Source: a bacterium (GTDB lineage: Bacteria; Patescibacteriota; Andersenbacteria; UBA10190). Taken from it: a stretch of 64,000 nucleotides of DNA. Shown here one piece after another: positions 2,897-48,832 of the stretch. The stretch is from NCBI GenBank assembly GCA_030698495.1, contig JAUYKA010000033.1, positions 7,840 through 71,839 on the forward strand. Reading direction: 5' to 3'. Numbering within the stretch: position 1 is the stretch's first letter; the number at the start of each line of letters is the position of its first letter. The translations under genes and the position numbers were made by a program. Under the pieces are notes generated by a model that was given only the letters and a program-made list of their open reading frames with translations, did no database searches and was not told the origin of the DNA.

Positions 2897-3586
2897 TCAA
2901 TCAATGCTATTCAGATTCAAAGACTTAATGAAATCAGTTTCTGCTTTTGAAAGCTTAATCTTAAACACTTGTTGGAATGTTTTATCAAAATTTGGTGGGT
3001 AATAAATCCGATCGAGCTTCTTTAACAACGTTAAAAGCGTTTTGATGGAATAGCGTTTGATTAGGAAGTATACAAACAAACAGGCATACTTATAGGCTTC
3101 ATAATTCGCGTGCTTATCCCAGCCCTGTTGGGTGGAGATTTTCTCATAAAAACTCTTCTCAATATAGTAGTTAGCACTTGATGAGTAGTCTTGAACTTGG
3201 CCCGCTAAATACATAGCTAACCCCTCGTTAAGCCATAAAGGCACTGTCTTGCCTCTTGCCGGATGAGAAATGAAAATATGGGCGATCTCATGCTTTAATA
3301 TCGAAGTGAATTCAGCTCGGTTATGAGTACTATACTTTTCCATCGCATCTGGATGAAAAATATTTAATGTATTTTCTTGAGAAATGTTGCCCACTTCCCA
3401 TTCCTGGGTATGTCTCCCCAGTTGTTTATCAAAACTTTTTCGTGAAAAGTGTAGTCGAATAGTCATGGGTGCGTTGAGCTTAGTCTCAAATAGCTTTTGA
3501 AAATTTTTCGTAATAGAAAAAACTTCTTGCTCAAGAAGGTGCTTCTCTTCTCTGTTTCTAAATCCTAATATAGTTGTCTGTTGCAT
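2897..3586 (-). CDS. Peptidase MA-like (gluzincin) domain protein: HEIAH ... NEGLAMY.
   Basis: HExxH followed about 17 aa later by NExxAxY, the layout typical of the Peptidase_MA_2 family. Confidence 0.6.
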   Translation of the reverse strand: MQQTTILGFRNREEKHLLEQEVFSITKNFQKLFETKLNAPMTIRLHFSRKSFDKQLGRHTQEWEVGNISQENTLNIFHPDAMEKYSTHNRAEFTSILKHEIAHIFISHPARGKTVPLWLNEGLAMYLAGQVQDYSSSANYYIEKSFYEKISTQQGWDKHANYEAYKYACLFVYFLIKRYSIKTLLTLLKKLDRIYYPPNFDKTFQQVFKIKLSKAETDFIKSLNLNSID

Positions 3587-6694: not shown

Positions 6695-8563
6695 CTACAT
6701 CTTCTCCGGAACGGCGATACTTAATAAAGCTAGTCCCTTTTTTATCACAAGAGCAACACCGTTGCTCAAAGCCAACCTTGATTCGCGCAACTGCTTGTCT
6801 TCGGTTTTTAGAATCGAAATCTCCCCATAAAAAGCGTTGAATAATTGAGATAATTCCTCTAGGTAAACACAAATTAGGTGAGGAGAGTTGGCTTGCTGAG
6901 CCCTAAGAACAGCCTCAGGAAATAACGCTAATTTTCTAGCCAGATCAAATTCGCTCCGATTTGTGAACGAGAATAATTGCTTAGCCAGGTTATTAAAATT
7001 GATTTGGCCATAGACCTCAACGAACTTCTTAAGCATCGAATTAATGCGGACGTAGGAGTATTGCAGGTAAACCGCACTTTTGCTCTCAAAGTCCAGCATC
7101 TTCTCCCAATCAAACGAGATGTTTTGCATCCTGGATTGATGCAGGTCGTTATAAACAATAGCCCCAATCCCGACTATCTCCGAAATCTTTTCTAACTCTC
7201 CTGGGTCTAAATCTGGATTTTTTTGCAGTAATATTTCCTTGGATTTTTGCACGGACTGGGACATCAGGTCTTCCAGCTCAATGACAGTACCCTGCCTAGT
7301 AGACATCTTTTTACCGTCACGCAACACCATGCCAAACCCAATATGTTTAGCTGTGACATTATCCGGCAAATATCCGGCGCGCCGACTTAACTCAAAAAGT
7401 TGCTGGAAGTTAAGACTTTGCTCATTACCAACCACATAGAGAATAACATCTGGTTGGAAGGTCTTAATCCTGAACCGGAGCGTGGCTAAATCGCGGGTTA
7501 AATAAAGACTAGATCCGTCTTGCTTTCTTAAAAGGAAAGATGGAATACCGCCCATCTGATCCACCACCACCGCAGCGGACGCCTCATCTTTTCTAGCCAA
7601 GCCTTTGGCCAGATATTCATCCACGATCCTATCTGCTTGCTCAACGAAGTAGCTTTCACCGATATTGGTGTCGAATTTGATGCCCAAACGGTGATAGATC
7701 CGCTCAAAATCTTTGATGCTCAAATCCCGAAACCGCTTCCATAGTGCGACTAGTTTAGGGTCTTTCTTCTCTAGTCTTGCGAATAACTCGCGAGCCTTGT
7801 CCTTCACTTCCGGATGTTCTTCGGCAAAATAGTGAAATTGAACATATAAATTTTTGAGCTCTTTGATGGGATTCTCTGCTACTTTTTTTTCGTCACCCCA
7901 CTGCTGGTAAGCGTAAATGAGGGAACCGAATTGCGTTCCCCAATCGCCCAAGTGGTTGTCTCTGATTACACTGTAACCGGTTGCGTGATAAATCTTGGCC
8001 AGGGCTTGCCCGATGATGGTGGATCGCAAGTGGCCAACCCCCAACGGTTTAGCTATATTGGGCGCAGAATAATCTATTAGAGCGACTAGACCAGCATTTA
8101 CATTGCTCTCTCCATAATGGTCGCCTAGTTCAAAAATATTGGCCAGAATGTTTTGATAAAAGATCTTCTGACGCACTTCAAGATTTACAAACGCTCCCAC
8201 AACTGAGGCTTTTTCAATAAAGATTGTCTGGTCTTCGCCAATACCCTTAGCAATTTTATTTGCCAGTACATTTGGATTCTCTCTGAGCTGCTTAGCTAGA
8301 CCAAATCCCCCTAATGCAAAGTCGCCAGGTATATGTGGCGGCGGTACTGATAGTTCTATTTCTGCCATCTCATGGATACCTGTTACTTCTTGCACGACCC
8401 TCCTTACTTCTTTTTTGAGTTGCTCAAGTGGATAGCTGGAAAAATCGATATATTTCCGATTTTCTTTTTCTGCCTGAAGATTTTTATCCACAACGTCAAC
8501 AGCTTGAGCCAATTCCAATCTGTATTGTTCAAACTCGTCCTGGTTGCTATCTTTTGTGTTCAT
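6695..8563 (-). CDS. argS: Arginyl-tRNA synthetase.
   Basis: Class I HIGH-region (SAPNIAKPLGVGHLRS), ArgRS-typical HLGDWGTQFG motif, 622 aa. Confidence 0.85.
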   Translation of the reverse strand: MNTKDSNQDEFEQYRLELAQAVDVVDKNLQAEKENRKYIDFSSYPLEQLKKEVRRVVQEVTGIHEMAEIELSVPPPHIPGDFALGGFGLAKQLRENPNVLANKIAKGIGEDQTIFIEKASVVGAFVNLEVRQKIFYQNILANIFELGDHYGESNVNAGLVALIDYSAPNIAKPLGVGHLRSTIIGQALAKIYHATGYSVIRDNHLGDWGTQFGSLIYAYQQWGDEKKVAENPIKELKNLYVQFHYFAEEHPEVKDKARELFARLEKKDPKLVALWKRFRDLSIKDFERIYHRLGIKFDTNIGESYFVEQADRIVDEYLAKGLARKDEASAAVVVDQMGGIPSFLLRKQDGSSLYLTRDLATLRFRIKTFQPDVILYVVGNEQSLNFQQLFELSRRAGYLPDNVTAKHIGFGMVLRDGKKMSTRQGTVIELEDLMSQSVQKSKEILLQKNPDLDPGELEKISEIVGIGAIVYNDLHQSRMQNISFDWEKMLDFESKSAVYLQYSYVRINSMLKKFVEVYGQINFNNLAKQLFSFTNRSEFDLARKLALFPEAVLRAQQANSPHLICVYLEELSQLFNAFYGEISILKTEDKQLRESRLALSNGVALVIKKGLALLSIAVPEKM

Positions 8564-8692
8564 GTCAACCTTTATATTACGACATTCTAAATGCTACCAC
8601 ATTATATACAACACCAATAAAGGTCAACGTGACGCAGTTCCTACCCGCCATTGCACCCGCCTTCTAGGAGATCCTCTATTAAAATATTCAGA

Positions 8693-9472
8693 TTACTTAT
8701 TGCTATATGTCCTTATCATATCTTGTGCGATTTTGATTTTTAAATTCTTATCTCTTTTATAGAATATGGAGCCTTTTGCTTGCTTTTCATCGCAATGCCT
8801 AACTTTTACCGCCCAGTTTTCGAAAAAAGCGATAGGAATGTTATTCTTAACAAATTCATTTGAAATAACATCCTCATAATTGCAATCATCTGTATACTTG
8901 GAAAAATTATAGATTCCATTGCTATGTGCAAAATCTAAAAACCTTTGATTGTGATAAACCAAAAAATGAGATGACACTCTATTAACGTCCCTAACATTTT
9001 TTTCTAGCGGACGACCAATATCTTCCAACTTCCACACCCAACAATCATAATCAATTACACTGGAAATTAAACATGTTTCTGGATGTCTATCAAAAAAAGC
9101 AGATATCTCCCCCAAGGCGTCATAATCATTTTTTTCCAAAACCGCAATAACATCACTTTCAATCTCTATCGTGTAGTCGCTTTTACCAGAAAGAGCATGA
9201 AAGTGAGCATTATTAGACGGATCTCCAGGACAAATAAAGTTCTTGTTCGCTTTATTTCGTATCCTTACTTCGTCAATATTGAGTTTGTCACGAAAGTGAA
9301 TAATTTGTTCTATAGAGCTGTCGGTTGCTCCGTCAACTTGCGCAATGACTTCGTATTTACAGCTTGAATTTTTAGTTAATGCATCTACGCTGATAGGCAA
9401 TGTTATATTCCAAAGATCAAGCTCATTTGCCACAATGGATATTATTTGAAATTTTGGTCGGTCATTCAACAT
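8693..9472 (-). CDS. GT2-like glycosyltransferase (GT-A fold), last gene of the AT-rich operon.
   Basis: N-terminal IISIV...EVIAQVDGATDSS resembles the DxD/DGSTD region of family-2 glycosyltransferases. Very low GC. Confidence 0.4.
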   Translation of the reverse strand: MLNDRPKFQIISIVANELDLWNITLPISVDALTKNSSCKYEVIAQVDGATDSSIEQIIHFRDKLNIDEVRIRNKANKNFICPGDPSNNAHFHALSGKSDYTIEIESDVIAVLEKNDYDALGEISAFFDRHPETCLISSVIDYDCWVWKLEDIGRPLEKNVRDVNRVSSHFLVYHNQRFLDFAHSNGIYNFSKYTDDCNYEDVISNEFVKNNIPIAFFENWAVKVRHCDEKQAKGSIFYKRDKNLKIKIAQDMIRTYSNK

Positions 9473-11400
9473 ACCGAAGAATCATAAACAGCATAATCTC
9501 CATCTTCGCTAAATAAGCTGGAGCTACTGTTTTTAATCCACAACGGAAAATATCTTTTATTTCTTTCACCAAAAACTACCGCTCGAGAAGGCATTGGATT
9601 GACTGTTGATTCTTCCCCATTTTTATTAAATGCAAGAATTCCAATAATCTCAGGCACAAGCAAACAAGATCTGTTTTTATCATTGATTGTTATATTAAAC
9701 CCGATTTCTTGCGTTCCTACTGGAATGGGGAATTCTAAGACATTTTCTTCTTTCACTATGCCAGTTGTATCGTGAGAAGCAGTGTCTTTAAATGGCACTT
9801 CTATAAAACCAGTATTTTGTTTGTGCTCATGAACAACTAAATCTCTTTTCTTTCTAAGCGTATATTTTTCATACTCAGCAACGTCTTTATAGAAACAAAT
9901 CTCATCCCACTGATATTTATGTTTGACACTCTTATCGATAAGAATATTTATTTCATCCAAATGATCACCCACAACTCTCACTCTCAACTTATGATTGCTA
10001 AAAGAAAGAAAGGTTGTATGTTCCTTCATCGTTACACAAACTTCTTCTTGTCCAATGCGGCCTATGATCCTTGGGGAAAACGCACCCCTCCCTTGGGGCG
10101 GGACTGCATTAATCGCACCGGAAAAATATGGATTTCCCAATTTTTCTAAAACACCTCTTCTTTTTTCTATTAGCTCAGATATAAAGTAAGACTGTAGTTT
10201 AATAAAATGTTTTATGAGTTGGCATTTTACACCGTCCGGTTTTTTAACAGTCTTATTCACAAGCCACCCCTGATAATAACAACCGCCGCCGCATAAATAT
10301 CTTGCCCAACATTTATTACATGGCTTCCTATTCTCAACGGTTTGGTTCATAAAGAGATCCTTTGCGGCCTCACTCACGCCTTCTTCTATACTGCCAATAT
10401 CTTGCCCTTTAGCCCCTACGAAATGAGCGCAAGGATACAATTTCCCATCCCAATCAACATATAATCCTGATTTTCCACAATTGCATCGATATCTCAATAT
10501 CGATCTATTTAATATTCTATAAAAATATCTGAAAAAATAATCCTCTGGGTTTATTGCTTTTAGATACTGCGCAAGCTCATCGTCAGAACTAGCGAGTAGA
10601 AAATCTATGAATTGGCTATATGCTTGTTTAAACTTCGGCAGATTTTCCTCATTCAAAGCAAAGCTTTCTTCGTGGCCGCTATTGACCGGCTTCATGTAAA
10701 TCGATGATTTTATGCCTAGATCAAAAATGTGTTTAAAATTTTTAGAGATATCCAATGTCTCCGCTGTTATAACAGAACAAGCGCCAATGTCGATTTTTTC
10801 CCTTATGGCAAATTGAATTAATTGAGCCAGATCATTATAAGTGCCCTTTTTATTCTTATATCTTCTAAATTTATCATGGTCTTCTTGCACTCCGTCGATA
10901 CTTATGTCCATTGGACTGCCTAAACGTTTTACCATTTTATCGGGAGTAAATATCAAACCGTTAGACATATTAGCTCCCACCCAAACAGTCTTATTGAATT
11001 TTTTACATAGCTTTTTAATGTGGTCTTTTAAGATTTTGTGATACCCCTCAGCGATAAAAGGTTCTCCGGCAACACCAAAATCAATTCTGGCAAACCTCTG
11101 ATCTTCCGATAAGCTCTTAAAAAACAAATCGATTGCCTCTATCGCGGTTCTCATGGTCATCATTTTCGTATTATTTTCCAGTTCTCGTTTCCGAAATACA
11201 CAATACCGACAATCCAAATTACATGACATTGATATACATAATTGAAGCTGTGGGCTTATTTCCTTGAATTCTTTTTTCCACTTAGAAGGCTTACTGTTGG
11301 GTAAATCTGGAATGCTTACACCAAAATCATCTATGCAAAAAACAGAGGATGTGTTTTCATCTATTGCGAATTTTTTATTCTTATGTGTAAATTTTTTCAT
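9466..11400 (-). CDS. Radical SAM enzyme with a SPASM domain and a roughly 230-aa C-terminal extension of unknown function (644 aa).
   Basis: CNLDCRYC (Cx3Cx2C) near the N-terminus. SPASM-type Cys clusters CNCGKSG...C and CNKCWARYLCGGGCYYQG. Confidence 0.8.
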   Translation of the reverse strand: MKKFTHKNKKFAIDENTSSVFCIDDFGVSIPDLPNSKPSKWKKEFKEISPQLQLCISMSCNLDCRYCVFRKRELENNTKMMTMRTAIEAIDLFFKSLSEDQRFARIDFGVAGEPFIAEGYHKILKDHIKKLCKKFNKTVWVGANMSNGLIFTPDKMVKRLGSPMDISIDGVQEDHDKFRRYKNKKGTYNDLAQLIQFAIREKIDIGACSVITAETLDISKNFKHIFDLGIKSSIYMKPVNSGHEESFALNEENLPKFKQAYSQFIDFLLASSDDELAQYLKAINPEDYFFRYFYRILNRSILRYRCNCGKSGLYVDWDGKLYPCAHFVGAKGQDIGSIEEGVSEAAKDLFMNQTVENRKPCNKCWARYLCGGGCYYQGWLVNKTVKKPDGVKCQLIKHFIKLQSYFISELIEKRRGVLEKLGNPYFSGAINAVPPQGRGAFSPRIIGRIGQEEVCVTMKEHTTFLSFSNHKLRVRVVGDHLDEINILIDKSVKHKYQWDEICFYKDVAEYEKYTLRKKRDLVVHEHKQNTGFIEVPFKDTASHDTTGIVKEENVLEFPIPVGTQEIGFNITINDKNRSCLLVPEIIGILAFNKNGEESTVNPMPSRAVVFGERNKRYFPLWIKNSSSSLFSEDGDYAVYDSSVC

Positions 11401-11407
11401 GTCTTAT

Positions 11408-13084
11408 TCAAATTACCTTATATCTAGTTTTTATATCCTGCAAAGCGCCGGCTAGTAATTCATATTTTCCTAATCCCTCAATCTTACTATTTCTAATACA
11501 AATTAAGTCATTTATAATACTCTTCAGTTCCAACCTCGCTTTGTCTGGACATATTTTTAGTTTCTCAAAAACCTCCGGAGAGGCAACCTCTTGGTTATTC
11601 ATAAGCGCTATCCTAGTAACTAGAAACCTCGCCTCTTCAAATAATGATTTAAAAGTTGATATTGTTCTTGTTTTCTCATATTCTGTTTGTTGCTTCCATA
11701 ACGCATCCTTGTAAACTATCCTTTTGTATCTCTCTAAATACTCAAGAAACAATTTGTTATTTCCAGAAACCAATCTTAACTCAAATACCTCAAAAAGATC
11801 CCTTGATTCACCATTTACTACTACGTCTTTTTCTACAGGCCTACCATGAGTCCCCTCGGATCTAACTCCGAGATACGCAAGTAATTCACATGTCAAATTT
11901 TCAATTGGAATAACTGGATAAGTTTTATTGCCTTTAAACATAACAATTTCAAAATCAAGATCGCTTTCCTTGGTTAAAACAAATTCTCCGTATGACCCCC
12001 TGGCTATAATATTTATCTCTGCATAATCTATGTCGACTAACCCACATACTGCTTTAACGATGCTTCTTAGAATGTCGTCATAAATTTCAGCGCTACAGTC
12101 TTTCTGTGCTTCTTTAATTGTATTGATCATTTTCTTATACCCCGCTTCATCGCCCAGAGCGACGATTAGGCTTGCTAAATGAAACTTTGCCTGGTTTCCT
12201 TTTTTAACAGCCATGATTTTTTTCGTTATGCCTAATAATACCCTGAGATCGTCAATACTATTTTGTCTTTTTTTGTACATCAGTAGCGTCCACGTGAAGG
12301 ATATTCTTGCGGAAACTAATTCATCTACAAAATGTCCAACCTCGAATGGTCTCGAATCTTTGTTGATTAATGGTTTTTCTGCATCAATAGTCAATTGGTC
12401 AAAATAATTGAAAAATTTATTTCTGTCTTGATATGCCATGGTTTTCCATCCAACCTTTTCAACTCTGTCCATCTTTCTAGCTTTATTGGAAAAACAATAC
12501 TTGCGTTCAAGAAGTTTGACATATTCCTCGACCAAATCTTCTTCAAAGGATTGAAATAAATTGATTTTCAAAAATAATAGATACCTTCGATCTATACCCG
12601 AATCTTCAACCTTAAATAATTTCTCAAAATCTATTAAGAAGTATGTTTTATTCAAGTAAAACATATTACGTAGCGCTAACCCCCTCCAAAGATAACCGTT
12701 TTGAAGAAAATGATTGTTTATACGAACCACATCTTCAAAAAGCAACTCCTTGTTCATCAAAGGATTCTGGTTCAATGGAAGCCCTAAATCCTCAAAAATA
12801 AAGAAACTATCTGCCCTGCTAATAGGCATTAAGACCTTAGCATCTGTTACATTATTCTTACGCAATAGCTGGTCTGCTAACTTTAGATTTTCTATTTCTT
12901 TCTGTTTGCATTTTTTAATGATATAACTTTTGTTTTTAATCCTAGAATATATTTTAATTACATCATTTTTAAATGGATTAACATTTTCTAGTTCAAGAAC
13001 TCGTAAATCATTTTCTCTTGTTATAATGCCTTTCCTTTTTAATAACTTGATAATTGCACTGTTCATAAAATTTAACTCCAGCAA
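11408..13084 (-). CDS. Two-domain protein: N-terminal aminoglycoside/choline-kinase-like fold (IDFE Brenner-type motif, non-canonical catalytic loop) followed by a Pol-beta-type nucleotidyltransferase domain (GS-x10-DLDFE).
   Basis: Motifs YLWRGLALRNMFY...FLIDFEKLF and ARGSYGEFVLTKESDLDFEIV read from the translation. Confidence 0.5.
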   Translation of the reverse strand: MLELNFMNSAIIKLLKRKGIITRENDLRVLELENVNPFKNDVIKIYSRIKNKSYIIKKCKQKEIENLKLADQLLRKNNVTDAKVLMPISRADSFFIFEDLGLPLNQNPLMNKELLFEDVVRINNHFLQNGYLWRGLALRNMFYLNKTYFLIDFEKLFKVEDSGIDRRYLLFLKINLFQSFEEDLVEEYVKLLERKYCFSNKARKMDRVEKVGWKTMAYQDRNKFFNYFDQLTIDAEKPLINKDSRPFEVGHFVDELVSARISFTWTLLMYKKRQNSIDDLRVLLGITKKIMAVKKGNQAKFHLASLIVALGDEAGYKKMINTIKEAQKDCSAEIYDDILRSIVKAVCGLVDIDYAEINIIARGSYGEFVLTKESDLDFEIVMFKGNKTYPVIPIENLTCELLAYLGVRSEGTHGRPVEKDVVVNGESRDLFEVFELRLVSGNNKLFLEYLERYKRIVYKDALWKQQTEYEKTRTISTFKSLFEEARFLVTRIALMNNQEVASPEVFEKLKICPDKARLELKSIINDLICIRNSKIEGLGKYELLAGALQDIKTRYKVI

Positions 13085-14733
13085 GCTGGACTATTACCCC
13101 CGGAAGTGCAAACTTCCGTTTCTTTGGCCCCACCTAAGTTTATCAGACTGTCTATCTCATTATTATACTTATTGATAGTCTCCTCTATGGCTATAGCCAA
13201 TAGTTCATTAGACTGCCACAGACTTTCCTTATCAGTTGAAGGATTACCAATAGTTGTACCAATCACTGTATATGTAATTTTTTCATCATTAGTAATTTTC
13301 CGATTAAAATCATTCAACTTAAACTCATCCATGCAGACATTACCTGCTTTATACAATCGGTCAGAAACCATACTTGTATACTTGCTCACCAAAGAACTGA
13401 TTGCGTTTTTGTCCTTAACGCGCTTAATATCATCTAGTCTTCTTTTGGGAAATACCACAAAAGAAATTCTATAAAAATCTAGATCGTTAAAAACTATAAC
13501 ATTTTCATTTTTCATTAAAATTTGATACCAATAATTTGCTAAATACTGCCTCCGTTCAATTAACTTACCGATAGCTCTCAATCCGATCCCCTTGATTGTT
13601 AACCAGAGCTTCAGAGACTCAAAGCCTCTTGACCCCATGAATGGCGTAGCTAAACCTAAATCCAAATACTCTTTAGCATTAACCTTATCGGGGTACCTAG
13701 AAAAAACATTTGTGGAATTAGGATTTTTAAACAAAACATAACTGCTAGAGTAGGGAATAAACAATGACTTGTGAGGATCTAACGACACTGAGTCTGCGTT
13801 CTCTATGCCTTTTAATAGGTGTTTGTATTTTTCTGAAAACAAAAAACTACCGCCATGGCATGCATCAACGTGCAACCAGACATTATACCGCTGACACATG
13901 CGAGAGATAGCTTCCAGATCATCTAAACCGCTAGTCCTACAATTTCCCGCGACCGCCACGACAAAAAATGGGATTTGATCTTTTGCAGAATTCTCAATAG
14001 CGTTTTTAATATTCAGCACCGAGGATGTGTAATTTTTTCCTGGCTCAGCCCAGATAATCGAATTAGATCCTAGTCCCAACCATGAGCAAGCGCTTTTATA
14101 GGAATAATGCTCAATACCCCTAGTCATTACGATGACTGGTTTTTGCTCAACAGAATGAATGCCCCGTTCCTTGATTGAAGGAAATCTATTATTTAACGCA
14201 GTCAGTAAGGCCACATAGTTAGAAAGATTGCCCCCCGTAGTCCACATACCACCAACCTTAGAAAGGGAATTAATCTCTGGCAGTGGTATAGTTTGATATC
14301 CTATTAATTCTCTTAACCAGTTTATAAGCTGGATTTCTATTATTGTTCCTATAGGAGCACTCCGATCAAAAGCTATCTGATTTTGATTTAAAAACTGAGA
14401 ATATATTGCTCCACCAATTGCATATTTCGAATTTCCGCCATCGGGAAAAGCAAGATATTTCTTATCAGCTTGAAGAATCGAGTATTCACCGATCATGTCT
14501 AATAATTTATCCAGATCATTGTCTGAAATTGAATTCTGCGGAATATGTTCGTCAAGTAAAAAGCGCAGCTCTTTGGGGCTCATATAATTAAACACTTTAT
14601 TTTTTCGTAATTTACCCGAATAGAAGTCCAGGCCTTTCCGAATAAACTTATGAAAAAAATCTTCCTCCAATAATGCTTTTTCGGAAGGATCTAGCAAGTA
14701 TTGTGAAACAAATTGGGAGTCTATTTTTCTCAT
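13072..14733 (-). CDS. Group II PLP-dependent amino-acid decarboxylase.
   Basis: MWTTGGNLSNYVAL, HVDACHGGSF and SLDPHKSLF (PLP-lysine) motifs. 553 aa. Confidence 0.75.
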   Translation of the reverse strand: MRKIDSQFVSQYLLDPSEKALLEEDFFHKFIRKGLDFYSGKLRKNKVFNYMSPKELRFLLDEHIPQNSISDNDLDKLLDMIGEYSILQADKKYLAFPDGGNSKYAIGGAIYSQFLNQNQIAFDRSAPIGTIIEIQLINWLRELIGYQTIPLPEINSLSKVGGMWTTGGNLSNYVALLTALNNRFPSIKERGIHSVEQKPVIVMTRGIEHYSYKSACSWLGLGSNSIIWAEPGKNYTSSVLNIKNAIENSAKDQIPFFVVAVAGNCRTSGLDDLEAISRMCQRYNVWLHVDACHGGSFLFSEKYKHLLKGIENADSVSLDPHKSLFIPYSSSYVLFKNPNSTNVFSRYPDKVNAKEYLDLGLATPFMGSRGFESLKLWLTIKGIGLRAIGKLIERRQYLANYWYQILMKNENVIVFNDLDFYRISFVVFPKRRLDDIKRVKDKNAISSLVSKYTSMVSDRLYKAGNVCMDEFKLNDFNRKITNDEKITYTVIGTTIGNPSTDKESLWQSNELLAIAIEETINKYNNEIDSLINLGGAKETEVCTSGGNSPACWS

Positions 14734-14815
14734 AATAATTCATCGAAACTGTATTGACGTTGGACTTACACAAAAAACAGTTTGCACGTAAACATAGCCA
14801 ATGATTCAATATATG

Positions 14816-15913
14816 TCAATAATATGTTTCGCCAAAAGAGATGTTATCCCCCTCTATCGATATTAAGGCTGCCCTTTGCGGATCAATAATTGGCGTTGTC
14901 ATATACATGTCTCGACCATTATATCGACCACTAGTTATCCTAGCAGCCATACGACAACCACCCTCGCATAACATCAAGGCGTTGCACGTTCGACATTCTT
15001 CTGGAAGCATTTTTGGCGATGCCCAAGATTTCATCCTCAGCCAAGTACTCAAAAATTTATCTGGTAAAACGTTGCCAAAGACAACGTCAGAATGGACGCA
15101 TGGTCTCATCGTTCCCGCTGATGAAACAACACAAGACGATACTGCGGCTGAGCAAATTCTGTTTCCGAAGAAACGAACAAACTCTGCTTCTTCGCGCTCA
15201 CCAAAAAGACACCTAGCGACCGGTTCAAGAACATCAACTTTGAGGGACAACTCCTTGTCTATGCGCATCAACTCTCTTAAGCAACGCTTACACTCTACCC
15301 CCGAAAGACAAAGGGGTATATTCGCTCTACATGACGGTAACATGGGGCCTGCACAGAAAGTGCTAACCCCGAGACGCTTTAAGGCCAGAGCTGTATCAAA
15401 TATGAAGTCTAGATTCATTTTTGATACGACCATATTAACGGCAACAGAAAGGTTAACCGCCAATAGACTTTCTATGCCCTTGATAGTTCGGCCGTAATTA
15501 CCACCAGCCCCGGCAATAGTGTTGTGTATGTCCTCTGGACCAAGCACTGAAACCAAGACATGCTTTAAGCCTTGCTCCTTTAGCGCTCGCGCATCTTTGC
15601 ATTGAATTAGAGCCGCATTTGTGTTAAGTCCCGTTTCAATTCCATATGACGTTGCAAGAGCAATGAGCTTAAGCAAGATTTCTTTTCGAAGCATCGGTTC
15701 GCCACCCGTAAACGTTACTAAGCCCACTTTAGCATCTCGCAACTGATCAATGACCATGCTATAGTCATTCATCCCTAATTCGTCTTGGTCTTTTACGAGA
15801 CTATGCCTCCAATAGTTGTAGCAGTGTCTGCATTCTTGATTGCACTGCGAAGTCAATTCTATTTGTACATCTAATGGCGCTGAGAGCCTTTCCATTGCTT
15901 GTCCTCCAAACAA
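14816..15913 (-). CDS. Radical SAM/SPASM-domain maturase-like enzyme (365 aa), first gene of the operon.
   Basis: CNQECRHC radical-SAM motif. C-terminal CSAAVSSC...C and CRTCNALMLCEGGCRMAA SPASM clusters. Confidence 0.8.
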   Translation of the reverse strand: MFGGQAMERLSAPLDVQIELTSQCNQECRHCYNYWRHSLVKDQDELGMNDYSMVIDQLRDAKVGLVTFTGGEPMLRKEILLKLIALATSYGIETGLNTNAALIQCKDARALKEQGLKHVLVSVLGPEDIHNTIAGAGGNYGRTIKGIESLLAVNLSVAVNMVVSKMNLDFIFDTALALKRLGVSTFCAGPMLPSCRANIPLCLSGVECKRCLRELMRIDKELSLKVDVLEPVARCLFGEREEAEFVRFFGNRICSAAVSSCVVSSAGTMRPCVHSDVVFGNVLPDKFLSTWLRMKSWASPKMLPEECRTCNALMLCEGGCRMAARITSGRYNGRDMYMTTPIIDPQRAALISIEGDNISFGETYY

Positions 15914-16087
15914 ATAAACAAGTTTTTAAAAGAACAGCAAGTAAGTGTACAACTATTTTTTACTAATGCAATCAGTAGAACCAACAATATGTCAATTTGC
16001 ATTGGCATACATAGTCATTCTGTTTCCTACCTGCAAACCTAACGATGTGACTAGCCATGCCATCTTAATTTGGTTTGTTATAGATCG

Positions 16088-16163
16088 TCTGAACAATGCC
16101 GACGAGTGGGAGTCGCAGGTGCTGGATTTTGATCACGGGATTTTGCTGGCGGTGCGGGGGTAA
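16088..16163 (+). repeat. 68-bp repeat (gccgacgagtgggagtcgcaggtgctggattttgatcacgggattttgctggcggtgcgggggtaa), copy 2.
   Basis: Direct repeat of 22282-22355, with 3 substitutions. Confidence 0.8.
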
Positions 16164-16309
16164 GGACTACTTTTAAAAACAAGATCGAACTCGAGCTGCT
16201 GCTGTTTGACTAAATGTGACTGTTTGCAGATAATGGAAAGTGCTGTAAACTCTAGTGTTTGGGGTTATTGTTGACTGTTCTTCACAACAACTGATAAAGG
16301 GGTACGGCA

Positions 16310-17380
16310 ATGAGCTGCACAGCTGAAGCGACCGAGGAGGTTGGCCATCACGAGACAAAACGAGACTATTTGCTGGTGATGGACCTGCCGGAGATGGTGC
16401 ACGGTCTGCGCCTGACCGGGCTGAACGTTCCGCCGCGAAACCATGACATCTTTGCCAAGATCAAGGAAGATCTGGCGAAGCTGTTCGGTGTAGTGATGCC
16501 CAAGTACGTCGGTGAAAGCGAGATCACCCTGAAGGTGATCGATATGCAAGAGCTGTCTGATCAGATACTGGCCAAGGCGGTGCAGATGGTCGACAGCATG
16601 AAGCAAGGCTACATTGTGAGCACTTGCATGGATATCGCAAGCATTGTGCTTCACGGCAAAGTCTTCGAAGCTAACCGGCTGATCGACAATACTGGCTCGG
16701 TATTGGGTATCGGACCTAGGCCGGGGCACTATAGCCTGCGGAAGCAGGTGGAAAGCGTGATCACGGACGCGGCTGGTCAACCCATTATCCTGGTGGAAGA
16801 CGGGTTGTTTACCGGGACGACGATGTACGAGGTGATCCGCGAGTTTCAGGCGCGCGGTGCGGAAGTCGAAGCGGTGGTGCTTGGCTTCGCGTTTCCGAAA
16901 GCGAAAGATAAGCTGGCGTCGCTTGCCATGGCACCGAGTGTTCATACGGTCGAGACGGTTCATAATCCGCTCGACTGGGTGCCCGATCACGACTTCTTCC
17001 CGTTCGTGCCCAATTGCGGCCGGGTACTGGGAACTCGTATCAATGGCCAGGTTCATCCGATTTACTCGCATCTGGGGTTCTCGTACAGCGTGCCCTATCT
17101 GTACGGATTCTGCCCCATGGGCGATTGGATCGGCCTGTCGTTGTCGGAGGCACAAGCGAGGGAGCTGACTTGGAACATCCTTCATCTGGACTGCGAGCTG
17201 TTCAGGGTCATCGATGCGATGAACGGTGGAAAAGGCTTCAAGCTCCATGAGTTGGGCAACGCCAGGCCACGCGTTTCCATCCCCTACCGCGTCAATCAGA
17301 AGCATCTGCCGGAGAACGAGAACGATATGACTATCGGCAGGCATCTGGCGGAAGAGACGATGCGCGCCAGTCCGCACTAG
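16310..17380 (+). CDS. Phosphoribosyltransferase-domain protein with a C-terminal extension.
   Basis: PRPP-binding motif ILVEDGLFTGTT. GC-rich. The antisense ORF 16265..17389 is judged an artefact. Confidence 0.55.
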   Translation: MSCTAEATEEVGHHETKRDYLLVMDLPEMVHGLRLTGLNVPPRNHDIFAKIKEDLAKLFGVVMPKYVGESEITLKVIDMQELSDQILAKAVQMVDSMKQGYIVSTCMDIASIVLHGKVFEANRLIDNTGSVLGIGPRPGHYSLRKQVESVITDAAGQPIILVEDGLFTGTTMYEVIREFQARGAEVEAVVLGFAFPKAKDKLASLAMAPSVHTVETVHNPLDWVPDHDFFPFVPNCGRVLGTRINGQVHPIYSHLGFSYSVPYLYGFCPMGDWIGLSLSEAQARELTWNILHLDCELFRVIDAMNGGKGFKLHELGNARPRVSIPYRVNQKHLPENENDMTIGRHLAEETMRASPH

Positions 17381-17389
17381 CGACAACAC

Positions 17390-19461: not shown

Positions 19462-19757
19462 CCGATTTTAGTGGTTAAGAAATAAAAAATCCTTCGCGTA
19501 AGAAGGAAATAGTATATTGTTATAAAAATACTATTTCCTTAAGAAGGATGGTTATGATGATGTAAATTGTGGATGTTTTGAATCATTGCGAATACCGGTT
19601 TTGTAAAGTTGTTTTGTTTGTTAAAGTGTACTTTAAATAGGCTGTGTGTCAAGGAGAGTGATTGACGGCACATGTTTTGTATATTAGCTTTAAGTGTTAT
19701 GACAGTTTTTGTTCGAACGTTGACAACCACAATATCTTCTGGGAAAGGGGTGTCGTT

Positions 19758-21164
19758 ATGAGTACGCCATCACAAACCGTCAAGCCGGAACTGGTAGGAG
19801 GAACAAGAGACCTGCTGCCGGCGGAGGCGTTGGCACAGAACACCGTGATTGCCAGGGTACGGAAGGTCTACGAATCCTTCGGCTTCGTGCCCTTGGAAAC
19901 GCCATGCCTGGAGAGATGGGATGTGTTGACCGGCGGCGCGCCTGACTTCAACAAGAGCCTGTTCAGAACGACTATCGTCAGGGGCTCTGAAGATGCCGGC
20001 ATTGATGCGGAGGAGCTGGGCAGCAGTGATTCAACGCTGCGTTTTGACTTGACGGTGCCTTTGGCCAGAGTTGTGTCCGCTTATCCGACTCTGCCGCGGC
20101 CGTTTAAGCGCTACCAGATAGGCCGGGTGTTCCGCGGTGAACGGCCGCAGGCGGGTCGCTTTCGGGAGTTTACTCAGTTTGATTTTGATATCGTTGGTTC
20201 CCGCTCTATCCTGGCTGACGTGGAAGTCATCCAGGTAATGTACGCGGCCATGCGCGCGTTGGGAGTTGAGGATTTTGTGATTCGTTTCAATACGCGCAAA
20301 GTCCTAAACGGATTGGCCGACTTGGTTGGTTGCACGAACGCCAAAGAGCTTCTTCGCATCATTGATAAGTTGGACAAGAAAGGTTTTGATGGCGTAGCGG
20401 AGGCTTTGCGACGTCAACCGGTCAATGAGTTTGATGATGCCGCTCTGGCTTTTTCTGATGCGCAAGTGGACCGGGTTCTCGGTTTCCTGAAACTACAGGG
20501 TGCGGATACACAAACCACACTGGCGGGATTGAAAGACCTGTTTGTCGGCACGACCAGCGAAGCGGCGGTTGAGGGTATCAAAGAGCTGACTACTATCGTG
20601 GAAATGTTGAAAGCGCTCGGTATCCCCCAAGCAAACTGGTCAGTGGATCTGTCAGTCGCCCGCGGGTTGGATTACTACAACGGTCCCGTTTTCGAGACTA
20701 GTCTGACAGACATGCCGGAATTGGGCAGTGTTTTATCGGGCGGACGGTTCGACGGACTGATGGACCGCTTTGTGCCGGGAAGCAATATTGCCGGTGTTGG
20801 CGCTTCCGTAGGCATCGACCGCATGGTAATCGGTCTGCAGAAGCTAGGCTTGTTGCCAAGCGTGAACTCGGTTACGCAAGTCCTGGTGACGGTATTCGCC
20901 GAAGAGCTGCGTACGGTGTCGCTGGTACTGGCCAGCGAGCTGCGCGACAAAGGAGCCAAGACTGAAATCTACTTTGGCGAAGACCGCACTTTGCGAGCCC
21001 AGCTGGCATACGCGACCAAGCAGGGAATCCCTTATGTAGTGATTGCCGGCCCGGAAGAGATTGAGAAAGGAACGGTGCAGCTGAAGGACATGAGCGCAAG
21101 AAAGCAGGAGGTGTTGACAAGAGATGCTTGCGCGGATACGATAATGGCCAAGCTCAATTCTTGA
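19758..21164 (+). CDS. hisS: Histidyl-tRNA synthetase.
   Basis: Class II motifs including FREFTQFDFDIVG and LSGGRFDGL. Start at the ATG with GAAAGGGG RBS at 19758. Confidence 0.85.
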   Translation: MSTPSQTVKPELVGGTRDLLPAEALAQNTVIARVRKVYESFGFVPLETPCLERWDVLTGGAPDFNKSLFRTTIVRGSEDAGIDAEELGSSDSTLRFDLTVPLARVVSAYPTLPRPFKRYQIGRVFRGERPQAGRFREFTQFDFDIVGSRSILADVEVIQVMYAAMRALGVEDFVIRFNTRKVLNGLADLVGCTNAKELLRIIDKLDKKGFDGVAEALRRQPVNEFDDAALAFSDAQVDRVLGFLKLQGADTQTTLAGLKDLFVGTTSEAAVEGIKELTTIVEMLKALGIPQANWSVDLSVARGLDYYNGPVFETSLTDMPELGSVLSGGRFDGLMDRFVPGSNIAGVGASVGIDRMVIGLQKLGLLPSVNSVTQVLVTVFAEELRTVSLVLASELRDKGAKTEIYFGEDRTLRAQLAYATKQGIPYVVIAGPEEIEKGTVQLKDMSARKQEVLTRDACADTIMAKLNS

Positions 21165-21185
21165 ATTTGTTCTCTATATGAAGGT

Positions 21186-21259
21186 GGGTACGTGGCTCAA
21201 TTGGTTAGAGCGCGAGGTTGTGACCCTCGAGGTTACGGGTTCGAATCCCGTCGTACCCC
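21186..21259 (+). tRNA. tRNA-His (anticodon GTG), immediately downstream of hisS.
   Basis: Cloverleaf read manually. Acceptor GGGTACG/CGTACCC, D-arm GCTC-AATTGGTTA-GAGC, anticodon arm CGAGG-TTGTGAC-CCTCG, T-arm ACGGG-TTCGAAT-CCCGT. CCA is not encoded. Confidence 0.8.
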
Positions 21260-21269
21260 CTTCTCTTTC

Positions 21270-27106: not shown

Positions 27107-27215
27107 TTTCTGTTTCGCCGGATGCCGGCTCTTCTGACCGGAATGACATAATGAGTTTGGCTAAACGTTTGGCTTGTTATAGACTTTAATTGCATTTTTG
27201 TTTCTTTGACAATTT
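27107..27215 (+). repeat. Repeat element A, second copy, ending in TTGACA just upstream of the lectin gene.
   Basis: About 90% identical to 24312-24420. Confidence 0.75.
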
Positions 27216-27229
27216 GCGGAGGAAGAGCG

Positions 27230-29086
27230 ATGAAACGCTTCTTGGCGATTGTGGTTTTGGGTGTTTTGCTTTCCGTTGACGTCGCGCAGGCACAATACAT
27301 CGGACGAATCGCGGAGAATCCCGTTACCGGGCATACCTATTACAGCATCAGAGATGCCGACGGGTGGAGTGGCGTGTATTGGCCGGTGGCCGATTACTAC
27401 GCTCGGAACTTGGGCGGACACTTGGCAACCATCAACGACGCGGCCGAAAACGCTTGGATTACGCGTGCTTTCCCGGGTGAGCCATATTTGTGGATTGGGT
27501 TGAACGATGTGGAGCAAGAAGGTCGTTTTGCGTGGTCGAGCGGTCAATCAGTGACGTATACAAACTGGGCGCCGGGAGAGCCGAATAACTATGGGGGTAA
27601 CGAGGATTATGTCCGGATGCGCAATTACACAGGCGCGCAGTCGAAGTGGAACGACTTGGGTTTGACCACACAAGATGATCCGAATTGGCCGATTTGGGGG
27701 CTGGTGGAGGTGCCAACGCAACCGTCAAACACACGAGTAATCATGACGGCGTTGAATCCGGCCAATTGGCACACTTATAAGCTGATTGGATCCGACGGCG
27801 GTTCGGGCGGTGTGAGTTGGTACAAAGCAGAAATGGCGGCGAAGCAGTTAGGCGGACATTTGGTGACGATTAACAACCAGAAAGAGAATGATTGGGTTGT
27901 GTCTAAGTTCGGCTCGCACAGTAATTTGTGGATAGGTTTAAGCGACCCGGACCATGACGGACAATTTACGTGGTCGAGCGGTGCGCCGGTGACATACACC
28001 AACTGGGAGCCGGGGGAGCCGAATAACTATTTCGACAACGAGGGATTCGCGCATGTGGATGCCAGAGTTACCGGCGGCGTTTGGAACGACACCAGTGGCG
28101 ACTTGTCGTACATGCTGGATCATAACGCGTTCGGCGTGGTGGAAGTGGCTTATGACGCGCCGCAGTTTCTGTTTCGGGATTCGGGAGATGATATGCCGTG
28201 GATCGATCATGTCGGGTTCTACCCTGGCGGAAATCAGAAGGTGTGGGAGGCGCATTTATGGGGTTATGCTACTGGTGTATATGTTGATCCCGATACTGAT
28301 CAGGGTGTTTCTGTTGATCGCGCATCTGGTGTGCAACAGCAGCATACATTGGCTTCGTTCTATGAAAATCGACTGACTTCGTCTGGCGGAAGTAGTCCTA
28401 CGGTCGCTGAACATTCGACGAGCGTTGCTATTTCACAAAGTGATGCGGATCAGATCAATGACTGGATCATTGAAAATGCACAGGGGGCGGGATATATTAT
28501 TGGTTCCGCTAATTTACAGAAGGGCTATTATCTCAACAGATATTCGTGCGTTGGTCTACTGGAGCGAGCTGCAGAAGAAGTTGGTGTCCACAGTGGCCAA
28601 GGTTATATACCCAACAGTATGGAAGGGCTTTCTATAAGAGACAAGAACGTCTTCAGCCCCAGTCTGCTGTATTACTGCCTTGTGTATCCGGAAGTGTGGG
28701 ATGAAAACTATCTTGTCGGGCAAGTTGACCCTGTGGATTTTATTCTGACAGATCCGCTAGGACGACGCCTCGGTCATGTTCAGGGAACTGTTTTTGATGA
28801 GATTCCTAATGCTGATTTGGTGGTAGAGGATGAGGATTACGAGTGGTTTCTGATTCCGGAACGTGTGCCGGGGGTTTACAGGGTGGATTTTTTCGGACTT
28901 GGCGAGGAGTACGCAGCACAGTTTGACTTGATGGATCCGGTACACGGTCTGACGACATGGCAGTACTCCGGGTACCTGGCCGAAGGTGAGTTGTTCAGTG
29001 TGTCGCTCGTGCCGGAGCCGACAACATTTGTTCTCTTCGTGCTTGGTGCTTTGAGCTTGTTGGCTTGGCGTCGAAGAAGGCGCTGA
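27230..29086 (+). CDS. Secreted protein with two tandem C-type lectin-like domains and a C-terminal PEP-CTERM sorting signal.
   Basis: Signal peptide MKRFLAIVVLGVLLSVDVAQA. Two WIGL...EPN...WND-containing CTLDs (GEPNNYGGNEDYV and GEPNNYFDNEGFAHV). C-terminus VPEPTTFVLFVLGALSLLAWRRRRR. Confidence 0.75.
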   Translation: MKRFLAIVVLGVLLSVDVAQAQYIGRIAENPVTGHTYYSIRDADGWSGVYWPVADYYARNLGGHLATINDAAENAWITRAFPGEPYLWIGLNDVEQEGRFAWSSGQSVTYTNWAPGEPNNYGGNEDYVRMRNYTGAQSKWNDLGLTTQDDPNWPIWGLVEVPTQPSNTRVIMTALNPANWHTYKLIGSDGGSGGVSWYKAEMAAKQLGGHLVTINNQKENDWVVSKFGSHSNLWIGLSDPDHDGQFTWSSGAPVTYTNWEPGEPNNYFDNEGFAHVDARVTGGVWNDTSGDLSYMLDHNAFGVVEVAYDAPQFLFRDSGDDMPWIDHVGFYPGGNQKVWEAHLWGYATGVYVDPDTDQGVSVDRASGVQQQHTLASFYENRLTSSGGSSPTVAEHSTSVAISQSDADQINDWIIENAQGAGYIIGSANLQKGYYLNRYSCVGLLERAAEEVGVHSGQGYIPNSMEGLSIRDKNVFSPSLLYYCLVYPEVWDENYLVGQVDPVDFILTDPLGRRLGHVQGTVFDEIPNADLVVEDEDYEWFLIPERVPGVYRVDFFGLGEEYAAQFDLMDPVHGLTTWQYSGYLAEGELFSVSLVPEPTTFVLFVLGALSLLAWRRRRR

Positions 29087-48700: not shown

Positions 48701-48772
48701 GGCTCCATCGTCTAACGGCTAGGACGGTGCCCTTTCAAGGCGCAAATAGGGGTTCGATTCCCCTTGGAGCTA
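48701..48772 (+). tRNA. tRNA-Glu (anticodon TTC).
   Basis: Manual fold: anticodon loop CTTTCAA, T-arm GGGGT-TCGATTC-CCCCT, 3-bp D-stem, G1-U72 wobble. Confidence 0.65.
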
Positions 48773-48832
48773 CTAATCAAAACTTTATAATACTTGCATA
48801 ACTTTATAAAGTTTGGTAAAATAAGCTTATCT

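Follow-up and report, generated by a model that had tools for sequence, protein, structure and literature searches.

A rare cassette of four enzyme genes that co-occurs with argS in uncultured bacteria

The minus strand of a 64,000-nucleotide stretch of a Patescibacteriota genome (GenBank assembly GCA_030698495.1, contig JAUYKA010000033.1, positions 7,840 to 71,839; here called the window) carries four tightly packed genes, for a group II pyridoxal-phosphate (PLP)-dependent amino-acid decarboxylase, a protein combining kinase-like and nucleotidyltransferase domains (KNT), a radical S-adenosylmethionine (SAM)/SPASM enzyme and a GT-A-fold transferase, followed by argS, the gene for arginyl-tRNA synthetase (ArgRS). 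Comparison of related loci indicates that argS and these four families make up one conserved unit, which is rare and appears to have spread horizontally among several distant, uncultured bacteria. Tentatively, we read it as a mobile biosynthetic cassette for a small amine-containing product, linked to a phosphate, nucleotide or sugar, that would be functionally tied to ArgRS. The folds of the encoded proteins, the co-occurrence of the five families, domain fusions, conserved tails and accessory genes are established; function is drawn from comparative genomics alone.

Co-occurrence of argS with four enzyme families

Upstream of argS (6695..8563; 622 aa; TIGR00456, 447 bits against a cut-off of 262), a 129-bp spacer (8564..8692) precedes the genes for a GT-A-fold, glycosyltransferase-like transferase (8693..9472; 259 aa), a radical-SAM/SPASM enzyme of the peptide- or protein-modifying type (9466..11400; 644 aa), KNT, whose second domain is a GlnE-type nucleotidyltransferase (NTase) (11408..13084; 558 aa, or 552 aa from the start given by NCBI, the ATG at 13066), and the decarboxylase (13072..14733; 553 aa). 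Counted upstream from the 259-aa gene, the first and third junctions are overlaps of 7 bp and 13 bp, the second is a 7-bp gap and the fourth is a gap of 82 bp, which separates the decarboxylase from a further minus-strand gene for a NirJ/AhbD-like radical-SAM/SPASM protein (14816..15913; 365 aa). An earlier, sequence-only reading of this DNA had placed five minus-strand open reading frames (ORFs) here, and they lie where it put them; its domain calls (two radical-SAM/SPASM proteins, a PLP decarboxylase, a kinase fold joined to an NTase and a GT2-like protein) were confirmed by Pfam and NCBIfam models, motifs and fold matches. The overlapping or roughly 7-bp junctions that it described are found in four of these genes, but not at the fifth, which lies 82 bp away.

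The loci compared were those of the window lineage (L001, L003 and L007-L011), the window's own contig (L004), the distant loci L012, L015-L018 and L019, and a partial locus, L013. In the window lineage, with protein identities of 56-86%, the order decarboxylase, 558-aa protein, radical-SAM enzyme and 259-aa protein is kept, and the 259-aa gene is usually followed by the gene for an NAD-dependent sugar epimerase and then by argS; some of these loci insert a gene for a TOD1/MUCI70-like protein or a sulfatase-superfamily hydrolase before argS. The sequence-only reading had treated the five genes, with the 365-aa protein among them, as one unit. This does not agree with the relatives, in which the four core genes are kept but the 365-aa gene is missing, and it overlooked argS, which co-occurs in every diverged version found and has to be added.

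Gene order changes in the distant versions. In L012, from a metagenome-assembled genome (MAG) labelled Flavobacteriaceae, the genes for the 259-like protein, radical-SAM enzyme, decarboxylase, epimerase and 558-like protein, in this order, are accompanied by a convergent argS on an island with integrase, KilA-N, resolvase and group II intron genes. There, the resolvase, group II intron reverse transcriptase, KilA-N and phage-type integrase genes flank one side of the cassette, and a protein of >1855 aa with Eco57I, SNF2 and helicase domains lies on the other side, in what looks like a mobile or defence-island setting (L012 1887-9601 and 19514-20480). L015-L018 encode, in order, argS, PHP, the 558-like protein, radical-SAM enzyme, decarboxylase, 259-like protein, a 266-aa protein, a GT2 and a UDP-glucose dehydrogenase. 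In L019, the order argS, 558-like protein, radical-SAM enzyme, decarboxylase and 259-like protein is followed by two ORFs, for a 246-aa sulfotransferase-like protein (Pfam score below cut-off) and a 127-aa protein matching no family, and Dcm/Vsr genes adjoin. The partial version L013 (GCA_030429175.1) reaches a contig end and holds genes for the decarboxylase, 259-like protein, epimerase, a different radical-SAM/SPASM protein, MatE, a GT1 and a sulfotransferase. Between the MatE and GT1/sulfotransferase genes lies an argS remnant (L013 5171-5914) that has lost its catalytic core; what is left of it are residues ~130-173 in one reading frame and ~424-582 in another. A standalone DALR domain acting as a tRNA-binding subunit had been considered for this segment and was rejected, as the pieces in two frames are those of an internally deleted argS.

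Each of the four complete diverged versions has a full-length argS next to the other four families, in differing orders and orientations: it is downstream on the same strand in the window, L001 and L003, convergent in L012, and the first gene in L015 and L019, where it belongs to the same operon and 47 bp and 13 bp, respectively, separate it from the next gene. Identity between versions is low (ArgS, 30-52%; decarboxylase, 40-48%; 259-aa protein, 33-48%; radical-SAM enzyme, 32-45%; 558-aa protein, 22-32%). Because the adjacency persists through four gene orders, with a decayed copy in a fifth version, it points to functional coupling rather than chance.

The unit is also rare. Scans of genome contigs and metagenome contigs found only one distant and one close locus, and close homologues among 5.8 billion protein clusters number 10 for the 558-aa family and 26 for the 259-aa family, and a search of IMG/VR viral contigs gave no member of the latter. 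Neither the literature searched nor the curated families yielded a description of the set, and neither radical-SAM protein reaches any NCBIfam cut-off, which agrees with the sequence-only reading that the combination is unusual and undescribed. Horizontal acquisition, which was also proposed there, fits the family as a whole (patchy distribution, an L012 copy on a mobile island), but not a recent event: because the relatives, at the protein identities given above, share synteny, the insertion is old in the window lineage.

The core enzymes and their conserved tails

The 553-aa protein is a group II decarboxylase (PF00282, 155.8 bits against a cut-off of 27; PLP lysine in S-L-D-P-H-K322), with CSAD, GADL1, GAD65/67 and DABA decarboxylase as nearest PDB entries, and reaches no NCBIfam equivalog cut-off (PanP, 138 against 606; DABA decarboxylase also failed). 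Its C-terminus consists of a variable linker, the motif S-P-A-C-W (13078-13092) and a final Ser. When all 1.84 billion representatives were scanned by HMMER with the decarboxylase as query, and relatives were grouped into 50%-identity clusters, a [GS]PAxW tail was identified after a variable linker and 0-5 residues from the C-terminus in 25 of the ~27 closest clusters; the tail is present in every cassette version and lacking in more distant decarboxylases. The tail Trp is conserved but the Cys of the window is not (C, S or G elsewhere), and the residues after the Trp vary (none, S, N, Y, R, SDP, EDEE, GGNGG and others).

Five clusters consist of proteins in which the kinase-like half of the 558-aa family is fused to the decarboxylase N-terminus (HMM E-values 1e-9 to 3e-17; P0166, P0167, P0171, P0172 and P0175), one of them from an Actinocrinis MAG. 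In another set of decarboxylases, more distant and without the PAxW motif, a Pol-beta NTase domain is joined to one terminus or the other, so that both orders occur (P0178, P0182, P0186 and P0199; P0191, P0192, P0194, P0198, P0200 and P0201). An apparent extra domain between the decarboxylase and NTase of P0194 (1170 aa) looks kinase-like by eye but is unconfirmed, Pfam finding only the decarboxylase and the NTase. Because of these fusions, the decarboxylase, kinase-like domain and NTase appear to be tied into one functional module.

In the 558-aa protein, an atypical protein-kinase-like domain (about 12485-13084) in the N-terminal half is followed by a helical linker, a GlnE/DrrA-type Pol-beta NTase domain (about 11765-12022) and a helical tail. 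The NTase carries the motif RGSYGE-x5-SDLDFE, in line with the pattern G-[SG]-x9-13-D-x-[DE] expected of the Pol-beta/GlnE type, and its top structural matches are the protein AMPylators GlnE and DrrA. Residues K57, E63, N140 and D152 of the kinase-like domain are invariant, and G135 stands five residues before N140, at the place expected for the catalytic Asp; this position is Gly in all versions (G-x-x-x-R-N). The ATP/Mg ligands are therefore kept, the catalytic Asp is missing and an invariant Arg is present, as assigned from motif spacing and fold match, not from residue-level structural superposition. No Pfam GlnE or ABC1 match reaches significance, and sequence-profile searches of the PDB with the 558-aa and 259-aa proteins returned nothing significant. 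Compared with GlnE/GlnD, DrrA (SidM) and the ABC1/UbiB proteins (ADCK3/COQ8), the two-domain fusion is undescribed and the kinase catalytic Asp is replaced by Gly. Two distant KNT relatives lie outside any cassette, a 635-aa Bacillus velezensis protein with a kinase-like domain (weak Pfam ABC1) and NTP_transf_2 (P0011), and a protein of an Actinomycetota MAG matched over the NTase half only (L005 8945-10684); the domain fusion seems to belong to a wider, unnamed family.

The 259-aa protein has a GT-A fold with a DxD-like acidic motif, as in GT2-like glycosyltransferases. Invariant motifs are E105-x-D107 (DxD-like), GD..N..H (83-90), D141..CW, R165..H169 and H226-C-D..K230. Its top matches include the protein glycosyltransferases COLGALT1, UGGT and GalNAc-T, and the fold also resembles the wall-teichoic-acid enzymes TarS/TarP and polysaccharide synthases. 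The latter resemblance, the decarboxylase-kinase-NTase fusions, and the genes adjoining the core in relatives (NAD-dependent sugar epimerase, TOD1/MUCI70, GT2, UDP-glucose dehydrogenase and sulfotransferases) would suit decoration of the cell envelope, in which a Lic/Kennedy-like route of decarboxylase, kinase, NTase and GT-A transferase produces an NDP-activated amino-alcohol or phospho-amine head group and places it onto a glycan or lipid, and the adjacency of argS is a historical accident. We consider this quite unlikely. Adjacency to argS recurs in every version despite shuffled gene orders, so that chance, for a single gene out of thousands, is very unlikely; the kinase-like domain lacks the catalytic Asp that a hydroxyl kinase would be expected to have; the NTase is of the GlnE type and not a LicC/GlmU-type cytidylyltransferase; Pfam and NCBIfam placed no core protein in a membrane-transferase, flippase or LicD family; and a peptide-type radical-SAM enzyme has no role in such a route.

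The 644-aa protein belongs to the radical-SAM/SPASM superfamily by its cluster motif (C60-x3-C64-x2-C67, CX3CX2C), its seven-Cys SPASM motif (SPASM cysteines C306/C308...C324; C361-x2-C364-x5-C370-x3-C374...C393) and domain models (PF04055 matched; PF13186, 23 against 21.5; TIGR04085, 52.4 bits against 27). Its closest relatives are peptide or protein maturases, and it stays under half of each curated NCBIfam cut-off (PapB, 170.7/340; SCIFF, 147.2/425; nif11, 135.2/518.7; QhpD, 112.7/453), reaching no known peptide-maturase equivalog in NCBIfam (PapB, SCIFF/CteB, QhpD, nif11, DynA and others); the same holds for the L012 orthologue. The top PDB match, CteB (5WGG; E-value 7e-36), is the sole solved relative by sequence and covers residues 49-404. 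Since this alignment starts at residue 49, the 48 residues that precede the core are too short for a recognition element (RRE) of the kind used on peptides that are made by the ribosome and modified after translation (RiPPs). Compared with the thioether maturases CteB (SCIFF), PapB (ranthipeptides) and QhpD, which are the top sequence and profile matches over residues 49-404, the protein is without an N-terminus of RRE length and a Cys-rich precursor gene, and has an extra C-terminal domain of ~220 aa (residues ~420-644; DNA 9469-10143). This domain has no Pfam or PDB match, also by PDB profile search, and ends in Val-Cys-COOH (9469-9474), as do all eight radical-SAM sequences from four cassette versions.

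The anaerobic sulfatase maturases (anSME), which the sequence-only reading had named as an example of a known family to which the radical-SAM proteins might belong, do not fit: the 644-aa protein scores 74.3 against 349.45 for TIGR03942, and the window has no sulfatase partner. Some relatives encode a 266-aa sulfatase-superfamily protein (L001 15271-16071) resembling the uncharacterised STM4013/SEN3800 hydrolase family (121 bits against 250). As an anSME partner it was rejected, the C/S-x-P/A-x-R formylglycine motif being missing, and the literature on STM4011-4015 was uninformative for the cassette.

That the top matches of the radical-SAM enzyme are all peptide or protein maturases (PapB, SCIFF/CteB, QhpD), those of the NTase protein AMPylators, and those of the GT-A enzyme in part protein glycosyltransferases, raises the alternative of a system that acts on its own proteins. 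The radical-SAM enzyme would cross-link or oxidise the [GS]PAxW tail, or use its own terminal Cys, the NTase and kinase-like domains would regulate the decarboxylase or ArgRS, and the GT-A enzyme would glycosylate protein; the outcome would be a decarboxylase that is matured or regulated in this way, or else a RiPP or cofactor with a fused precursor. Strict conservation of short terminal motifs after variable linkers in two proteins is consistent with this, as are the 82-bp and 129-bp spacers, which are too small for a separate precursor gene. However, the ArgRS, sugar-nucleotide, sulfotransferase and MatE genes would be left unexplained, the variable tail Cys (C, S, G) excludes a thioether there in most members, Trp cannot be nucleotidylated, and no RRE or protease was found. 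The conserved tail could equally be a docking motif or an active-site plug; in GadB, the C-terminal tail acts as such a plug. Taken together, we judge a protein-level system unlikely.

Possible roles of the ArgRS and of the cassette

The window ArgRS is full-length with a helical N-terminal extension of 45-60 aa; in a phmmer alignment (query residues 7-619), this extension falls on the region of the N-terminal helix in human cytoplasmic ArgRS (4R3Z_B). Three ArgRS of the window lineage (window 6695-8563; L001 16243-18150; L003 8043-9947) share this extension and the sequence GVGH, compared with HxGH (H-V/I-G-H, the class I HIGH signature) in seven other ArgRS and in the closest solved structures (PDB 6AO8/4OBY). 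No Flavobacteriaceae occur among the best 120 matches of the L012 ArgS (52-58% identity) despite the label of its MAG, for which mis-binning is possible. The L013 copy appears to be dispensable there, because its remnant is internally deleted. Matches to the NCBIfam family NrtL, an ArgS-related anticodon-binding protein, were weak and partial, no paper on it was found, and it was set aside as a candidate.

Within the biosynthetic reading that we tentatively favour, the decarboxylase would convert an amino acid to an amine, its nearest relatives acting on Asp, Glu, cysteine sulfinate and diaminobutyrate. Phosphorylation and then nucleotidylation by the kinase-like and NTase domains would activate an anionic group, the radical-SAM/SPASM enzyme would carry out radical C-H functionalisation, and the GT-A enzyme would transfer or accept the nucleotide-activated group. 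The sugar epimerase, UDP-glucose dehydrogenase, GT2/GT1, sulfotransferase and MatE of other versions would tailor and export the product. Pairs of a kinase and a nucleotidyltransferase activate a phosphate, phosphonate or carboxylate for ligation, and the fosfazinomycin preprint gives an example. ArgRS would most likely be the producer's insensitive copy of the target, as in clusters for inhibitors of aminoacyl-tRNA synthetases (aaRSs), with supply of Arg-tRNA a less likely role. Of the features expected of an immunity gene, an aaRS inside the cluster is seen, and support for a second copy is indirect, from the decayed L013 argS and an L012 ArgS atypical for the labelled taxon.

Several observations weigh against this reading. 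No exporter is encoded in the window or close relatives. The radical-SAM enzyme is closest to peptide and protein maturases and the NTase to the protein AMPylators GlnE and DrrA, and, taken with the tail motifs, these affinities suit chemistry on proteins no less than a route to a small molecule. The window argS may simply be the only ArgRS of its genome, having host-like GC content (0.433), possibly a promoter to itself, and the housekeeping neighbours nifS/nifU and hisS. Furthermore, the cassette ArgRS do not form one clade, the window type and the L012/L015/L019 type being different subtypes, and the latter look catalytically ordinary.

A different use of ArgRS, which we regard as rather unlikely, is tRNA-dependent assembly. 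Here, ArgRS would supply Arg-tRNA(Arg), from which Arg would be moved onto an activated carboxylate, phosphate or amine provided by the decarboxylase and kinase/NTase; the intermediate, possibly tethered to the C-terminal tail of the decarboxylase, would then be modified by the radical-SAM and GT-A enzymes, in a pearlin- or valanimycin-style pathway with new enzymes. The conserved and operonic linkage to argS argues for it, as does a kinase-like domain that has no general base but an invariant Arg, a feature fitting for a carboxylate or another anionic substrate. Likewise, the linker and conserved tail of the decarboxylase resemble scaffold peptides, the radical-SAM enzyme is of the peptide type, and there are published precedents both for tRNA-dependent steps that use cluster-encoded aaRSs and for a kinase and nucleotidyltransferase that together ligate onto a peptide C-terminus. 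Conversely, none of the transferase folds known to depend on aminoacyl-tRNA (LanB/PEARL, Fem/GNAT, CDPS or ATE-like) was recognised, the 0-5 variable residues after the tail Trp speak against chemistry on a defined free carboxylate, none of the 14 loci contains a tRNA gene (tRNA-Arg included), and the argS of L013 has decayed.

A related scheme, doubtful in our view, combines tethering with tRNA coupling. The [GS]PAxW tail and the Val-Cys terminus of the radical-SAM enzyme would serve as built-in carrier or substrate arms, on which Arg-tRNA from the dedicated ArgRS, the kinase/NTase, the radical-SAM enzyme and the GT-A enzyme would build or mature the product. If true, this would be scaffolded biosynthesis or a protein-derived cofactor that needs neither a precursor peptide nor the known tRNA-dependent folds.

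Known superfamilies make up the cassette, which probably obeys a known cluster logic, that of an aaRS inside a cluster. Clusters encoding a copy of the targeted aaRS include those for albomycin (SerRS), mupirocin (IleRS) and indolmycin (TrpRS), and the albomycin enzyme set includes radical-SAM enzymes, PLP enzymes and a kinase. The enzymes found here (a GlnE-type NTase with an atypical kinase, a PAxW-tailed decarboxylase and a GT-A enzyme) are not those of described aaRS-inhibitor pathways. As in the clusters for tiarins and trifolitoxin, a full-length aaRS is co-inherited with biosynthetic genes and the distribution is patchy and mobile. Across those clusters, ArgRS and seven other aaRSs are encoded. 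An aaRS gene in a cluster serves either for immunity, as a copy of the target, or to supply a tRNA-dependent step, and trifolitoxin was shown to act on ArgRS (bioRxiv 10.64898/2025.12.02.691738). Tiarins are defined by the TfxB/TfxC FMN-dehydrogenase pair with RREs and by a precursor with a conserved Gln (bioRxiv 10.64898/2025.12.02.691738). In contrast, the cassette proteins have no nitroreductase or SagB-type match in Pfam or NCBIfam that would correspond to the nitroreductase-like TfxB/TfxC, no precursor gene is present, and YcaO and GNAT proteins are also lacking, which places the cassette outside this class.

The absence of a precursor, transporter and peptidase that the sequence-only reading had noted stands: the spacers leave no space for a separate precursor gene, and no precursor gene, RRE, peptidase or transporter was found in the window or close relatives, as would be needed for a RiPP cluster. 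Upstream regions of seven loci hold no conserved small ORF and only promoter-like conservation. The RiPP or cofactor-like pathway that it proposed is possible but no better supported than a small-molecule pathway, and the fused tails could possibly act as the 'cores' of a RiPP precursor. In mycofactocin biosynthesis (MftA-F), a radical-SAM/SPASM enzyme acts near a C-terminal aromatic residue and a GT-A (GT2) glycosyltransferase acts late. The cassette differs in having no MftB, MftD or MftE, its 'precursor' would be the tail of a 550-aa enzyme with a Trp that is not always terminal, and a match to the MftC model is limited to the non-core 365-aa protein. It is likewise distinct from PEARL systems, with no LanB-like match in the cassette and variable residues after the tail Trp. 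In phage thymidine hypermodification, a kinase is said, in a 2021 NAR account, to act first, followed by transfer and then by tailoring with a PLP decarboxylase or radical-SAM enzyme. The cassette shares the logic of that system and of Lic/Kennedy routes, in which activation by a kinase and by nucleotidylation goes together with PLP decarboxylase, radical-SAM and transferase steps, but those pathways use P-loop kinases, aGPT-Pplases and LicC/LicD, and no aaRS. Known defence systems were also rejected, as PADLOC gave only generic radical-SAM-core matches to pVip and desulfurase-like matches to SspA/DndA.

Should argS be there for immunity or supply, the cassette would represent a class of products not yet explored, directed against the arginine arm of translation or made from it, in uncultured lineages and in a form that escapes standard mining rules (precursor, transporter, known maturase family). 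It offers a testable context for two families that have no Pfam or NCBIfam model, the KNT fusion and the 259-aa GT-A enzyme, and a new group II decarboxylase subfamily defined by its terminal [GS]PAxW and kinase-like fusions. For biochemistry, the window-lineage ArgRS offers a simple handle in its HIGH signature, where the first H has become G.

Island limits, promoters and neighbouring genes

GC content of the window is 0.460 (2-kb windows: mean 0.458, sd 0.045), and all eleven 2-kb windows with GC <0.38 fall within 8.0-15.0 kb. The four genes at 8693-14733 have GC of 0.33-0.37 and GC3 (GC at third codon positions) of 0.31-0.35; the 365-aa radical-SAM gene (0.448) and argS (0.433) resemble their surroundings. 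The AT-rich drop that the sequence-only reading had drawn from 8.6 to 15.95 kb is real, and the block is foreign in composition, but because the GC of the 365-aa gene matches the flanks, the island is the four-gene block and ends near 14.7 kb. The cassette is more AT-rich than its flanks in four of five versions, by margins of 0.03 to 0.10. Beyond the cassette, too, GC differs markedly from gene to gene: across positions 1-30000, 500-bp windows range between 0.37 and 0.59, with a peptidase-like gene (2897-3586) at 0.367 and hisS at 0.540 as examples, and such a compositionally mosaic genome weakens GC alone as evidence for recent transfer.

The 82-bp gap upstream of the decarboxylase gene holds the top sigma-70-like match of the region, TTGACA-17-TATGTT on the minus strand (14791..14819), directly 5' of that gene and identified by promoter scan as a 10/12 match to the consensus only. 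A similar TTGACA...TATGTT in L003 aligns with it, and this site likely marks the start of a four-gene transcription unit. In the 129-bp spacer, a TTGACC...TATAAT-like stretch was read by eye, although the scanner did not list it; a separate promoter for argS may lie there.

The 365-aa protein (PF04055, 70.8 against 29.5) is NirJ/AhbD-like but well under the cut-offs (NirJ2, 117 against 500; AhbD, 114 against 500), and scores 80 against 265 with the MftC model. It was seen only on the window's own contig and is absent from L001, L003, L007-L011, L012, L015 and L019. In the window lineage, what lies upstream of the decarboxylase gene changes from locus to locus: response regulators, a NUDIX gene, SpoU or a 393-aa protein that is unrelated. 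Two candidate counterparts were rejected: the 393-aa protein of L001 gave a scattered alignment with no Cys motif kept, and the 351-aa radical-SAM protein of L013 shares 26% identity over 112 residues only. The 365-aa protein is therefore a neighbour or a lineage-specific accessory and not part of the conserved core. It is very improbable that, as the sequence-only reading had it, two co-operating SPASM maturases act with the decarboxylase, NTase and GT2 in a five-gene operon for a RiPP or cofactor whose precursor lies elsewhere. All five genes do share a strand, both radical-SAM proteins carry SPASM domains, and the non-orthologous second radical-SAM/SPASM protein of L013 indicates that accessory enzymes of this type occur. 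However, the 365-aa gene is absent from related loci, has flank-like GC and is set apart by 82 bp and the promoter-like site, and such an operon ignores argS and rests on a unit already contradicted.

Directly upstream of the AT-rich block, two long ORFs on opposite strands (16265-17389, minus; 16310-17380, plus) overlap almost completely in a GC-rich gene (0.565; GC3, 0.72). The plus-strand frame has a weak phosphoribosyltransferase match, whereas the ORF on the minus strand is probably just a shadow produced by high GC. The rise of GC from 0.35 to 0.56 within 2 kb is striking. The hisS gene is immediately followed by a tRNA-His(GTG) gene (19662-21260). The window is unusually rich in translation genes, with hisS, tRNA-His, argS, an 853-aa class I aaRS (44017-46578) and tRNA-Glu (48701-48773); Rfam identified no element in the cassette region and only two tRNAs across the whole window. 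At 27206-29086, a 626-aa protein combines two C-type lectin domains, which are uncommon in bacteria, with a PEP-CTERM sorting signal, implying an exosortase-bearing Gram-negative host.

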